Below are positions 9,772-36,849 of a stretch of DNA of 64,000 bases, one piece after another. How positions within the stretch are numbered: the first letter of the stretch is position 1; each line of letters opens with the position of its first letter. The notes under the pieces are model-generated. The model was not told where the DNA came from, ran no database searches, and saw only the letters and a program-made list of their open reading frames with translations. A program made the translations under genes and the position numbers. Source of the DNA: a virus; the IMG/VR virus record IMGVR_UViG_3300044613_001897, one strand, 5' to 3'.

Positions 9772-10409
9772 TTGATATTTATTAATTATGCGAACATTAA
9801 CAATATTAGCTACAGAAATCTATCAAAAATTAGGAAAACAATACCCTAATTTAACAGAACGTAAGAAGGCTACTAAACAACATATACTAACAGAAATTTC
9901 ACAATGGGCTATAAAAAAAGGCACATTTAATGATGTTATAGCATTCACGCCGGTTGAATTTAAAGGTACTGCAGATAGCAGCCCATTTGAAGTAAGATTG
10001 GCTTATGATATTGATGATAACTTTTGGGAATTAAAATTTGGAGACTTAAATGCATCTACTCCCGAAGAACAATTTAAGTGGAATGATAAAGATCCATATA
10101 GATTACAAAAGGCGCTATTTCTTCAAACCGTACTAACTAAGGAAATATTACCGTTTATAAAAACTACAAATAGCGAAGGTATAAAATTTCAGCCATATGA
10201 TGGTGATGGATTAGAAGATGAAAGATTAAGTTATTTTCAAAATATGTTTAAAAAATTAAATAAGAATGATTTTGATTTTTCTAAAGGTTATTTAGAAGAG
10301 GATGATACTTGGTATATAACTAAAAAAGTATAATTAATTTAAAATTAAAGTAAACAAATTATTTGGTTTTTTGACAAATTATACTTAGCTTTAAGTATAA
10401 TTAAAAGTT

Positions 10410-11201: not shown

Positions 11202-11255
11202 ATATAACGTCCGATGATAAACAATCGTTTTAATGTTGTTTATCATTTGTTATGT
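11202..11255. repeat. attC-like hairpin site 1 (short class, 54 bp)
   Basis: ATATAAC gtccg ATGATAAACAA tcgttttaatg TTGTTTATCAT tt GTTATGT. Confidence 0.85.
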
Positions 11256-11294
11256 TCAGTTTTTATTTGTATTTTTGTAAAAAATTAGAATGTT

Positions 11295-11594
11295 ATGGTA
11301 ATAAAATGTAAAAAATGGGTATTATTTAATATATTGAAGGTTAAAGCACATTTTTTAAGACTCAAACACTTTATAATAACAGGAAAAGATATTGAAAAAC
11401 TCCCATCACCCCAAGAAGGTTATTGTAGAGCTTATTTTTTTGAAATAGAAGGTGATTCATATGTATTGAAACATCACGAAATACCACTTTTTTTAATAGA
11501 AAAGTTCTACGAAGACTTCAATAATAAAAATGGTAAGTTAATGGGTTTGAAAAGGGAAGAAGTTGTTAGGTGGGTTTTAGAAAATAAAAATTGA
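11295..11594 (+). CDS. Cassette 1 gene, hypothetical
   Basis: Single ORF between hairpin sites; its stop lies in the terminal inverted repeat. Confidence 0.75.
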   Translation: MVIKCKKWVLFNILKVKAHFLRLKHFIITGKDIEKLPSPQEGYCRAYFFEIEGDSYVLKHHEIPLFLIEKFYEDFNNKNGKLMGLKREEVVRWVLENKN

Positions 11595-11635
11595 ATATAA
11601 CGGTTGAGGATATAAAATCGTTTTAATGTTTTATA
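11595..11635. repeat. Truncated short-class site fused to site 3
   Basis: ATATAAC ggttg AGGATATAAAA tcgttttaatg TTTTATA runs directly into TTATAAC of the next site. Confidence 0.75.
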
Positions 11636-11752
11636 ACGTTTTGCAGATATACGCAGTTCTAATGAAAAATTAAATAGATATGGAAAACTTAAATGATACA
11701 AACAAACCTTCGAATAACGCAGAACAAGAATTGCGTATATCTGATGTTATAG
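11631..11752. repeat. attC-like hairpin site 3 (long class, 122 bp)
   Basis: ATAAC..CAGATATACGCAgTTCT ... AGAAtTGCGTATATCTG at GTTAT. Confidence 0.85.
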
Positions 11753-11907
11753 GTAGTAAAAAAATCGAATTAACTACTGATGAATTACTTAATTTATTAA
11801 AGGAAGCATATAGAAATGGTTATGCTACCTATGAAATGGCTGATGCTGGATTAGAGCCATACGATGCTGATGGATATGCAAGATGGGTTTTATTAGGTTT
11901 GGACTAA
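11680..11907 (+). CDS. Cassette 2 gene, hypothetical; starts inside the hairpin loop
   Basis: N-terminal ...QELRISDVIGS is encoded by the right arm of site 3. Confidence 0.75.
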   Translation: MENLNDTNKPSNNAEQELRISDVIGSKKIELTTDELLNLLKEAYRNGYATYEMADAGLEPYDADGYARWVLLGLD

Positions 11908-11919
11908 AATTTTTATTAC

Positions 11920-11973
11920 TCATAACGGTTGAGTGTAAAAAATCGTTTTAATGTTTTTTACACTTTGTTATAA
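11920..11973. repeat. attC-like hairpin site 4 (short class, 54 bp)
   Basis: TCATAAC ggttg AGTGTAAAAAA tcgttttaatg TTTTTTACACT tt GTTATAA. Confidence 0.85.
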
Positions 11974-12012
11974 GTATGTATTATTTTTGTTTTACCTTAT
12001 AAAAAAGAAACT

Positions 12013-12165
12013 ATGGAAGAAGAAAAAGTTATTTGTCCGAAATGTGGGAATGAAGAAAATTTCCACTTCAATTACGATTATAGTAAAAAGGAACTACCTA
12101 TAATTGACGTGTTATGTAATGAGTGTGGAGAATTTTTTGAATTAGAAAAATCAAAACAAAAATAA
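12013..12165 (+). CDS. Cassette 3 gene, 50 aa zinc-ribbon protein (not in ORF track)
   Basis: MEEEKVICPKCGNEENFHFNYDYSKKELPIIDVLCNECGEFFELEKSKQK; two CxxC pairs. Confidence 0.8.
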   Translation: MEEEKVICPKCGNEENFHFNYDYSKKELPIIDVLCNECGEFFELEKSKQK

Positions 12166-12171
12166 TATTAC

Positions 12172-12304
12172 TTATAACGTTTCGCAGCTAAACGCTGTTG
12201 CGTAATAAAGCGATAAATGCACAATAAAGTAGATAGGTTTATTAAATAAAAAACAGTTTATTATATGAAAAATCAAAGCAATAGCGATTTATGTGCTGTT
12301 ATGG
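12172..12304. repeat. attC-like hairpin site 5 (long class, 133 bp)
   Basis: ATAAC gtttc GCAgcTAAACGCTgTTGC ... GCAAtAGCGaTTTAtgTGC t GTTAT. Confidence 0.8.
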
Positions 12305-12627
12305 CTATGTTGCCTACGCACGGATTCCACAAGACATTGGGAAAAATAGAAATTTTAGGGGTAAGAGTAAAATCAACAACATCAAACAACACTATGTACA
12401 TGACTATAATTGATGGTGATATGTTGTGGGTTTATGATTATGAAACCGAATTAGATTTTACAAAAAAAGATTATGACAATAAGTTACTTCAAGAGTTCAC
12501 ACCTAAAATTTATGAATGGATTATGACGCCACCATTTAATTTAGAACACGCTCAACACGGAATGGCTTGTGAAAAGTTTGGTGATGTCCGTTCTGAATTT
12601 TTGCAGAAACGCTCGTTAGGCAATTAG
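12265..12627 (+). CDS. Cassette 4 gene, hypothetical; in-frame start inside the hairpin loop
   Basis: MKNQSNSDLCAVMA is encoded by the loop and right arm of site 5. Confidence 0.75.
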   Translation: MKNQSNSDLCAVMAMLPTHGFHKTLGKIEILGVRVKSTTSNNTMYMTIIDGDMLWVYDYETELDFTKKDYDNKLLQEFTPKIYEWIMTPPFNLEHAQHGMACEKFGDVRSEFLQKRSLGN

Positions 12628-12681
12628 CCATAACGTCTGATGATAAACAATCGTTTTAATGTTGTTTATCATTTGTTATAG
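12628..12681. repeat. attC-like hairpin site 6 (short class, 54 bp)
   Basis: Core differs from site 1 at one base (GTCTG vs GTCCG). Confidence 0.85.
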
Positions 12682-12724
12682 GTAGTTTCATTTTTTATTT
12701 TACAAATTATAAATTTTCATAAAT

Positions 12725-13024
12725 ATGACAGAAGAACGAATAAAAGAATATGTAGTAAATGGTGGAAAACTTTTTACTATCAAAACAATTGACACTATTA
12801 GGGATGGTGGAACAAAAGTATTGGACACAACTGGTGGTAAATTTTACATAAATAAGGATAGTAAAAAGTTTCATTCTGGTTACTCACCAAGTGATGAAAA
12901 TTTAATAACAGATTTTTTGTTGGTAGAATATCTGATTGAAAGAATTGAAACATACATTAAACGATGTGACGAAGATTTGGAACGAAATAAAAATCTGTTA
13001 ATAGAAATTAAAAATAAAAAATGA
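12725..13024 (+). CDS. Cassette 5 gene, hypothetical
   Basis: Single ORF between site 6 and the integrase-proximal site. Confidence 0.75.
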   Translation: MTEERIKEYVVNGGKLFTIKTIDTIRDGGTKVLDTTGGKFYINKDSKKFHSGYSPSDENLITDFLLVEYLIERIETYIKRCDEDLERNKNLLIEIKNKK

Positions 13025-13030
13025 TATTAC

Positions 13031-13088
13031 CTATAACTCTTATATATACGCACCACAATATAATCAATTAATAATCAATAAGTTATAA
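13031..13088. other. Putative attI-like primary recombination site with IHF-like box
   Basis: CTATAAC without the array hairpin, directly upstream of the integrase ATG; contains AATCAATAAGTTA, matching WATCAANNNNTTR. Confidence 0.6.
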
Positions 13089-13886
13089 ATGCAAGTTCTT
13101 AAAAATTTTCAAGAAAAATTAAGATATAAAAACTATTCTCAGAGTAGTATAAATTTATATACATCATATTTAAAAAATTTTATCGAATATGGTGGGATAA
13201 AAGACCCATACCAAATTAGAACACAACAAATAGTATCGTTTCTTGAAAAATATCCTTACACATCATGCAGCCAACAAAACCAATATATAGGTGCTCTAAA
13301 ACTTTTTGCTAAATATATTTTAAATAAAAAAGACATACATTTAACAAAAATAGAAAGACCAAAATCAGAAAAGAAACTTCCAAGAGTTATTGATGGTGAG
13401 TTTATAAAAGAAAAACTAAACCAAATTGAAAATCTTAAACACAAAGCAATTCTTACGCTAACTTATTCAGTTGGATTAAGAGTATCTGAAATTGTTAACC
13501 TAAAAATTGAAGATATTGATTCAAAAAGAATGCTTATTCATATCAAAAATGCAAAAGGTAGAAAAGACAGAATAGTTCCTCTTTCGCCAAATGTACTTAA
13601 TCTGTTAAGAGATTATTTCAAAGAATATAAACCAATTGAATACCTCTTTAATGGTCAATTTACAAACCAATATTCAATAGGTAGCTGCCAGAAAATATAT
13701 AAGAAATATATTGACAATACATCATCAATCCATACCTTGCGACATTCATCTTTTACTAACTTATTAGAAAGCGGAACTGATTTACGAATAATACAAAAGA
13801 TTGCAGGACATTCATCATCGAAAACTACTGAGATATACACTCATGTATCTAATCAATTATTATCTTCTGTTAATTTACCTATTTAA
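13089..13886 (+). CDS. Tyrosine recombinase (integron-integrase-like, short form)
   Basis: N-terminal SAM-like domain, KLPRVI, GLRVSE (R), AKGRKDR (K), HTLRHS (HxxR), GHSS..TTEIY (H,Y): full catalytic set. Confidence 0.93.
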   Translation: MQVLKNFQEKLRYKNYSQSSINLYTSYLKNFIEYGGIKDPYQIRTQQIVSFLEKYPYTSCSQQNQYIGALKLFAKYILNKKDIHLTKIERPKSEKKLPRVIDGEFIKEKLNQIENLKHKAILTLTYSVGLRVSEIVNLKIEDIDSKRMLIHIKNAKGRKDRIVPLSPNVLNLLRDYFKEYKPIEYLFNGQFTNQYSIGSCQKIYKKYIDNTSSIHTLRHSSFTNLLESGTDLRIIQKIAGHSSSKTTEIYTHVSNQLLSSVNLPI

Positions 13887-14373: not shown

Positions 14374-14495
14374 AAATATTAAAAATTTATTGGTAATTTA
14401 ATCTTTATTTCTTATATTAATGTATTAATAGAGCAGAAACTATTTAAAAAACGGGAGTAACTGAAAATCCTTAAGAGTAGGACAAATAAAATCGT

Positions 14496-14819
14496 ATGAA
14501 ATATTACTTAAAAGCATTACAAAATTATGCAAACTTCGATGGCAGAGCTACCAGATCTGAATATTGGTACTTTGTATTATTTAACTTTTTAATAGCGTTT
14601 GCTGTTGGGTTCGTAACAGCAATCATAGGTCTGCCAGCATTGTCTACATTGTATACGCTTGGTCTACTAGTTCCAGGATATGCAGTAGCAATTAGAAGAA
14701 TACATGATACAGGTAAAAGTGGTTGGTTTGTATTAATACCAATATATAACTTTGTATTATTGGTTTCAAAAGGGCAAGATGTCGAGAATAAGTTCGGCCC
14801 TGTCCCTACAGCAGAATAA
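14496..14819 (+). CDS. DUF805 family membrane protein
   Basis: YANFDGRATRSEYW and RRIHDTGKSGW motifs. Confidence 0.9.
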   Translation: MKYYLKALQNYANFDGRATRSEYWYFVLFNFLIAFAVGFVTAIIGLPALSTLYTLGLLVPGYAVAIRRIHDTGKSGWFVLIPIYNFVLLVSKGQDVENKFGPVPTAE

Positions 14820-14838: not shown

Positions 14839-14864
14839 AAGCCTCCGTAAATCGGGGGCTTTTC
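14839..14864 (+). terminator. Intrinsic terminator
   Basis: AAGCCTCCG taaat CGGGGGCTT followed by T-rich tail. Confidence 0.7.
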
Positions 14865-35543: not shown

Positions 35544-35627
35544 GCCCCGGTGGTGGAATGGTAGACACGCCGCACTTAAGATGCGGTGAATGTTAAATTC
35601 GTGCAGGTTCGAGTCCTGCCCGGGGTA
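35544..35627 (+). tRNA. trnL-UAA: tRNA-Leu(UAA)
   Basis: GCCCCGG/CCGGGGT acceptor, CCGCA-CTTAAGA-TGCGG anticodon arm, long variable arm, GCAGGTTCGAGTCCTGC. Confidence 0.95.
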
Positions 35628-35720
35628 CTAAAAAAAGATAGTTTATAATTAATTTGGTTTTCTAAACTAATTTTACTATCTTTAAAGTATTATATTAATT
35701 AACCAATAAAAACAAAAAGT

Positions 35721-36299: not shown

Positions 36300-36696
36300 G
36301 GGGGTGACAGGTATTGACTGACATCTAATAGTATATCTTCAGCTCGGTGAATGGTTATTTACACCGAACAAAAATTGTAACCAAAAAATAAACGCAACAG
36401 AATTGTCTGCATTTACATTTGAAGATGCTATTGCATTTGTAACAAATGATGCGCTTGTAGCAGCGTAATAACAGAAGCCTACTACCTTACAGCAACTTTA
36501 GATATAGGTTAAATTGTTGTTTGTTTTGCTAATTTTCTCAAAATTAGATGGTGGATAAGTTGGCTTCCCATAATAGTCAGCCCCTTCTTTATTGGAATTC
36601 TAAAGTAGTTAGATTAAACTTTGAATTATCCTATGCTGTAAATAAAAGATGTATTGATTACTGGACAGGACCCGGATTCGATTTCCGGCACCTCCT
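36300..36696 (+). ncRNA. ssrA: tmRNA
   Basis: GGGGGTG/CACCTCC acceptor with G3.U70, T-arm CCGGA TTCGATT TCCGG, tag ORF 36394-36468 ATELSAFTFEDAIAFVTNDALVAA*. Confidence 0.9.
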
Positions 36697-36849
36697 CTAA
36701 ATTACAAAATATGAAACTGTTTGCCAGATTATTAAATAATATACTGACCAATATAGTTGGGTCGGTGTGTATTGAAATTTCATGGATCTTATCAAATTTA
36801 GGAGCAATTAAGTTAGCAGATAAATTTTATTCATTAGGTTGTTATTTTT

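Follow-up and report, generated by a model that had tools for sequence, protein, structure and literature searches.

Can a tyrosine recombinase that lacks the I2 insertion of integron integrases run an array of gene cassettes? The question is raised by a 64,000-nt stretch of viral DNA (IMG/VR record IMGVR_UViG_3300044613_001897, here called the window), in which an intact recombinase gene (ATG to TAA) encoding 265 aa is preceded by a series of small genes and hairpin-forming sites. From sequence comparisons we put the probability that this enzyme runs a phage-borne, integron-like cassette system at roughly 0.92; the likely role of such a system would be to acquire and reshuffle small accessory genes. 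The window is AT-rich (26–36% GC) and, with matches to DNA ligase, thymidylate synthase, primase and baseplate wedge proteins as features of large tailed phages, reads as part of such a phage.

Upstream of the recombinase gene we found six TAAC-headed elements, namely five full hairpin sites and a truncated one (Table 1). Each full site is followed by one plus-strand gene of 50–120 aa, and these genes read toward the recombinase and its attI-like site.

Table 1 Features of the cassette array, the attI-like site and the recombinase gene in the window
Feature	Position	Strand	Description
Hairpin site 1	11205–11252	+	48 nt, 5/2 spacer; distal array end
Cassette A gene	11295–11594	+	99 aa; cassette ~11208–11600; no family match
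Truncated site 2a	11598–11633	+	retains the left arm and the loop of a site of the 48-nt type; gene gone
Hairpin site 2b	11634–11749	+	116 nt, 6/2 spacer; contains the cassette C start codon
Cassette C gene	11680–11907	+	75 aa; cassette ~11637–11925
Hairpin site 3	11923–11970	+	48 nt, 5/2 spacer
Cassette D gene	12013–12165	+	50 aa, CxxC zinc-ribbon-like (weak matches below cut-off); cassette ~11926–12177
Hairpin site 4	12175–12301	+	127 nt, imperfect stem; contains the cassette E start codon; based on sequence and fold
Cassette E gene	12265–12627	+	120 aa; cassette ~12178–12633
Hairpin site 5	12631–12678	+	48 nt, 5/2 spacer; heads the attI-proximal cassette
Cassette F gene	12725–13024	+	99 aa; cassette ~12634–13036
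attI-like site	13034–13052	+	TAAC-TCTTATATATA; minus strand TATATA-N5-GTTA; non-palindromic, just before the start codon
Tyrosine recombinase	13089–13886	+	265 aa; core-binding and catalytic domains; without I2 insertion

The right arm of site 2a is cut where site 2b starts, and a cassette was apparently removed here through recombination or deletion at a TTATA microhomology in that arm. Site 4 was not caught by the strict site detector. Homologues of cassette C occur as cassettes in two viral relatives (L046 and L068), and a 906-nt contig of sequencing run X4 includes positions 12166–12635 between flanks that match nothing adjacent in the window. Four of the five cassette genes had no match in Pfam, NCBIfam or PHROG, and Atlas look-ups of cassette functions were blank or gave leads below 0.9, the latter for cassette F. 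In four of four runs, the summed contig depth at 11204–11337 and 12544–12677, which cover 48-nt sites, was far above that of the flanks; the short site is therefore common to many other genomes in those samples. Joints that could be taken for cassette circles (e.g. 12165 to 11198) had short sides and 90% likeness and were rejected, as they probably stem from other phages that share the sites; no circular cassette was seen.

The 265-aa protein scored above the cut-offs of both Phage_integrase and Phage_int_SAM_4 in Pfam. The first-pass annotation had described it as devoid of the IntI-specific insertion, and alignment with IntI agrees: about 47 IntI residues are absent, the I2 region included. 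The annotation had located the gap between the patches YLFNG and HTLRH; about 16 residues are indeed missing there, but 29 of the ~47, including I2, are missing N-terminal of YLFNG. The two patches start at residues 185 and 215, with 25 residues between them and 30 from start to start, in line with the spacing of about 30 given before. The segment missing relative to IntI1 before YLFNG (WFWVF in IntI1) holds the I2 residues K219/Y220, and the match to VchIntIA (PDB 2a3v) falls into two pieces, chain residues 5–178 and 259–315. As had been predicted of IntI-specific HMMs, the integron-integrase model TIGR02249 misses the protein: the match breaks at residue 181 and reaches 152.8 bits, below the cut-off of 265. 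The distance from K..K.R to H..RH is 59 in this recombinase, 58–63 in 80 of 80 proteins of the viral set (window included) and 59–68 in 77 of 79 proteins from genome loci, compared with 105–106 in three of three canonical IntI and 69–74 in XerC/D-like proteins. Without the I2/intI_Cterm region the protein is not an IntI, though the cassette system that it probably runs is integron-like. Cury 2016 reports few I2-less recombinases near model-detected attC sites and judges recombinases without intI_Cterm near attC not to be IntI.

The catalytic residues R131, K159, H215, R218, H241 and Y250 (the RKHRHY set) were unchanged in all 27 aligned proteins, and the enzyme is therefore not a decayed IntI. 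Its top NCBIfam score was for XerA (184.7 against a cut-off of 220), and it remained under every cut-off of the IntI, XerA, XerC and XerD models. A structure model (pLDDT 87, pTM 0.62) returned 2a3v first in Foldseek with XerA close behind and thus does not discriminate between them. XerC, XerD and XerA are likewise simple two-domain recombinases; however, they differ in the longer catalytic distance given above and form a separate branch.

In a 52-row tree the phage recombinases formed one clade (97/96) apart from IntI and Xer, nested with chromosomal Bacteroidota and rAID-type proteins (93/94) and then with Nitrospirota-type rows (94/91), with the IntI branch (100/99) and the Xer branch (100/100) separate. 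The rows were picked by hand, include only three IntI, and were grouped under names given after a 143-row quick tree had been seen, with which the 52-row tree agrees. Left out of the trees were L194, the duplicates L195–L198, L164, the odd proteins L186, L188 and L200, ORFs below 235 aa and near-copies at 85%. In AU tests with these three IntI rows, neither a clade of phage proteins with IntI (p = 0.07) nor one with Xer (p = 0.39) was rejected, and the tree is therefore compatible with loss of I2 or with its ancestral absence. The distinct clade proposed at first pass is thus present in the best tree, and the processing of hairpin cassettes proposed along with it is suggested by linkage and by junctions, as described below.

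Recombinases linked to IS91 are also short (270–286 aa), lack I2 and share 37–42% identity with the window protein. They branched near the base of the tree, outside the cassette-associated clade, and members of this length class adjoin a transposase and not an array; protein shape alone therefore does not imply cassettes. In contrast to their pairing with an IS91 transposase, the ORFs that flank the window gene (99 and 164 aa) have no transposase match, and the next gene downstream is convergent.

We then asked what lies beside the relatives. The viral set comprised 80 loci in the 57–100% identity class, some of them near-copies. In 177,573 nt upstream of these loci, a scan without constraint on the spacers called 316 sites, 235 of which had a left spacer 3–4 nt longer than the right. 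The corresponding figures were 2 of 28 for 231,089 nt of downstream sequence and 3 of 21 when the bases of the upstream DNA were shuffled. Where 3 kb or more of upstream sequence was available, 47 of 50 viral loci had at least two contiguous sites; the three loci without an array call were L067, where the attI pattern was unmatched yet six sites are listed, L074 with a single contiguous site, and L080, which has the attI-like motif and no array. The homologues are thus tied to oriented TAAC...GTTA hairpin arrays, the association that the first-pass annotation had made decisive. Among 350 distinct cassettes the longest ORF was on the recombinase strand in 313, on the opposite strand in 7 and absent in 30. 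The 313 proteins fall into 283 families; of the 264 families that reach at least 55 aa, 100 representatives were scanned, and 7 of them matched a Pfam model. Immunity families were found neither in the five window cassettes nor in the 100 cassette proteins of relatives. Cargo at two loci comprises an MT-A70 methyltransferase and an Rv2179c-like 3′-5′ exonuclease (L045:5429–5998 and L007:6488–7081).

The sites of this type share an asymmetric design. When the two arms were aligned with gaps, the 5′ arm was a net 3–4 bases longer in 265 of 315 distinct sites, as a bulge at positions 2–5 after AAC, and just 17 extra-base events fell at 3′-arm positions 7–12, the L-box positions. The same reading of attC sites in two control integrons, one of class 1 and one from a Shewanella phage, gave single extra bases on the 3′ arm, matching the extrahelical bases of attC described in Nivina 2016. 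The enzyme is without I2 and the site without L-box extrahelical bases, so both are without the matching parts. The strand on which the bulge comes first is the coding (plus) strand in phage sites, and it folded better in 350 of 365 of them; in chromosomal sites it is the non-coding strand, which folded better in 64 of 86. The strand bias therefore follows the bulge and not the coding strand. G.T pairs favoured the plus strand (196 versus 54), and base pairing in the stems is maintained by several pair types at each position, although pairing is partly built into the detector.

The other component is the attI-like site. Its motif TAAC-TATTATATAT was present 30–110 nt before the gene in 66 of the 67 loci with at least 700 nt upstream. 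The viral record nearest to the window (L001, from G001) encodes an identical recombinase and matches the window from 13026 rightwards, with other cassettes to the left; it ends inside its own array, and no empty-site state was therefore seen. Contigs of runs X7 and X14 likewise match from 13032/13033 and are preceded by unlike sequence. Crossover would thus be placed at or right after the AAC at 13035–13037.

Shared cassettes in different surroundings point to the unit that moves. Among 83 shared-cassette pairs, which are not independent because several share loci and which include one contig-edge artefact, 14 had a different left neighbour, and in 12 of these the upstream site was at least 96% identical. 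Ten pairs had a differing downstream site; in 9 of them the upstream sites were at least 96% identical, and in the tenth 75%. A misfit was the pair of L068_0 and cassette C of the window (88% identical), whose upstream sites are 60% and downstream sites 77% alike. The two ends of a cassette were complementary to each other at 4.71 of 6 nt (n = 431), compared with 2.28 for the flanks of the site in place (n = 428), as is expected if the site re-forms in a circle. A search of the distal array ends gave no sequence common to the arrays. A cassette therefore appears as a hairpin site with one downstream gene, crossover falls at the left 5′-AAC, and variable cassettes abut the attI-like site. With an attI-like entry site and single-gene cassettes that, by these comparisons, are mobile as units, the locus resembles an integron system in these two features.

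Cultured phages provided junctions. Polaribacter phage Freya encodes a recombinase of the same clade (38% identical) beside an attI-like site and the same hairpins. We compared six of the nine other Freya isolates with Freya_10, and all six diverge from it exactly after AAC. Freya_1, 2, 5 and 9 are without blocks that run from just after the AAC of a site to the AAC of attI, Freya_8 is without a block between two sites, and Freya_6 has at attI an extra 472-nt segment, not present in Freya_10, that begins just after AAC. Three of the junctions are inside records; those of Freya_1, 2 and 8 are at the join of deposited record ends and could stem from assembly. The partner sites at the Freya junctions have only AAC in common. 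Another cultured phage, Cellulophaga phage Ingeline_1 (L082), also encodes a recombinase of this clade and has an attI-like site, with one or more bulged hairpins upstream.

These observations bear on the chemistry. The recombinase is likely an integrase that joins a folded, single-stranded hairpin to the double-stranded attI-like site at the 5′ end of its gene. According to this model, the folded coding strand would be cut at AA/C and joined to the attI-like site in one strand exchange followed by replicative resolution, as in integrons; resolution of this kind is proposed because the partner sites share only AAC. The asymmetric bulge, and not the docking of flipped bases by I2, would determine which strand is used and prevent a second exchange. 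Ordinary double-strand chemistry, in which duplex sites (or a hairpin that mimics a duplex, as in CTX phage) undergo two strand exchanges with no need of I2, would agree with the XerA-like closest sequence matches and with residue 158: this residue corresponds to S173 of IntI1, and 79 of 79 viral-set proteins that have the motif carry R or K there; S173R was among the IntI1 mutations selected for ancestral activity (Escudero 2020). We nevertheless regard it as unlikely, since the partner sites have AAC alone in common at the junctions, stem pairing is maintained by several pair types at each position (partly by construction), and a fixed one-sided bulge with a folding strand bias would be useless in a duplex.

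Whether the enzyme is needed at all can also be questioned, as the array might be shuffled by a host IntI, another recombinase or homologous recombination, and the gene be a passenger or an ordinary prophage integrase. Bartlau 2021, who report Freya genomes of 44.0–48.9 kb, took the integrase as a sign of a temperate lifestyle, and the 48-nt sites are near-identical repeats on which homologous recombination might act. However, the AAC junctions join unlike sites, the attI-like motif is fixed beside the gene across relatives of 57–100% identity, and the hairpins are without the bases that IntI binds. Furthermore, none of five Flavobacteriaceae genomes had an IntI match over the cut-off, although the 14 control genomes had none either and matches were scored in pieces. 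The side of the array and the polarity of the sites also switch together with the recombinase clade, as described below, and we consider this explanation improbable.

The least probable alternative, which we hold to be very remote, is that the repeats are expression elements only, acting as terminators or translation signals, and that the cassette-like variation is incidental. A start codon lies within the hairpin site in 123 of 313 cassettes, as such elements might have it; the precise AAC junctions, the complementarity of a cassette's own ends and the confinement of the sites to the region upstream of the recombinase argue against it, and an Rfam scan gave no match within the array.

Under the cassette-system reading, ribosome-binding signals would be supplied by the hairpin site. 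Transcription of the array would start from an upstream phage promoter. A scan for sigma-70 promoters remained at chance level (36 versus 36.9) and one terminator was found, at 14839. At least 13 copies of an intergenic motif, TTTGG...TAnnTTTAAGTATA, precede genes within 5037–37442. We take this motif to resemble the Bacteroidota promoter consensus, and its copy at 10362 could drive the array. From the promoter-like motif and the relatives we infer a Bacteroidota host.

Among 80 loci from genomes, about a dozen have the phage layout, belong to the phage clade and are probably prophages. The others are 41–48% identical to the window protein and come mostly from Bacteroidota, with some from Nitrospirota and other groups. 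Here mirror-image sites lie downstream of the recombinase gene, with the same bulge on the non-coding strand; the attI-like motif follows the stop codon in 48 of 65, compared with a mean of 17.9 and a maximum of 30 in shuffles, and in 56 of 66 segments the genes have the same orientation as the recombinase. Many bacterial contigs at genome loci L094–L162 stop 100–330 nt past the recombinase, several of them right at the attI-like GTT, a pattern that a variable array would produce by interrupting assembly.

The layout of these chromosomal relatives is that of rAID-1 (Ross 2019, bioRxiv 10.1101/471110; bioRxiv 2025.05.03.651265). In the available text of Ross 2019, rAID-1 of gut Bacteroidales is an XerD-like recombinase beside co-oriented small genes, whose intergenic repeat motifs are called reminiscent of integrons, with no mechanism given there. 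Two plasmid loci (L189 and L190) were recognised as rAID-type from their arrays of immunity genes; they fall among the chromosomal relatives in the tree, and the two recombinases are 38–40% identical to the window protein. rAID-1 differs from the window in that its array is downstream, its enzyme has ~367 aa with an N-terminal extension and its cargo is immunity genes, whereas the window has an upstream array and an enzyme of 265 aa. The short intergenic motifs of the rAID loci did not fit the bulged-hairpin pattern.

The window system resembles classical integrons (IntI1, VchIntIA) in an attI at the 5′ end of the recombinase gene with the array leading away from it, in one small gene per cassette, and in imperfect palindromes with AAC/GTT ends and an AAC crossover on the better-folding strand. 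It differs in several respects besides the I2 insertion of IntI. Classical attC sites have an unpaired central bubble and L-box extrahelical bases instead of the 3–4-nt bulge on the 5′ arm; classical cassettes have the gene upstream of its own attC and are read from Pc at attI, whereas the window genes are inverted and point to attI; and the window system is carried by phages of Bacteroidota. Cassette arrays in phage genomes have been described as phage integrons and CALINs (Qi et al. 2023, PMC9892861); these, however, have canonical IntI and attC and were found with IntegronFinder and attC models, and the strings Bacteroid- and Flavobacter- are absent from the accessible text of that paper. 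Likewise, the accessible part of Ghaly 2021 contains nothing on the bulged-hairpin site type. In a literature search with limited coverage of subscription journals, we found neither this type of site nor the Freya junctions described.

On balance, we lean towards the broader proposal that these loci represent a second, widespread class of integrons. Its I2-less recombinases would act on single-stranded bulged hairpins; the arrays would have inverted genes in phages of Bacteroidota and run forward in the chromosomes of Bacteroidota and Nitrospirota, with rAID as a derived branch. The class would have been missed by IntI and attC models and would represent a state of single-strand cassette recombination without need of the I2 helix. 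If true, this would explain the apparent rarity of integrons in Bacteroidota, where complete integrons are rare according to Neron 2022 (IntegronFinder 2), and would give rAID-type arrays a mechanism. In Escudero 2020, the I2 helix is presented as the innovation that enabled single-stranded hairpin recombination, and missing intermediates are named as a limit; this claim becomes directly testable with an enzyme that has no I2 and a hairpin design of its own, and Freya and Polaribacter offer a cultured phage–host pair. The system furthermore points to a large pool of phage accessory genes and to a compact, structure-guided recombinase of 265 aa.

Some further observations concern more distant matches and the rest of the window. 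A recombinase of Acinetobacter plasmids (TnpF/tyrosine-type; H52–H77, H90) is ~50% identical over residues 59–265, and one of these plasmid matches overlaps a tet(X3) annotation; the TnpF-type recombinase family may be linked to tet(X) mobility. Sequencing runs that match the window are recorded as lake-water, freshwater or unspecified metagenomes. An Rfam DUF805 RNA motif (14423–14487; 68.3 bits, above the gathering score) is located just upstream of a DUF805 gene (14496–14819), and the window further carries a tRNA-Leu(taa) at 35544–35628 and a phage tmRNA (tag ATELSAFTFEDAIAFVTNDALVAA) at 36300–36697.
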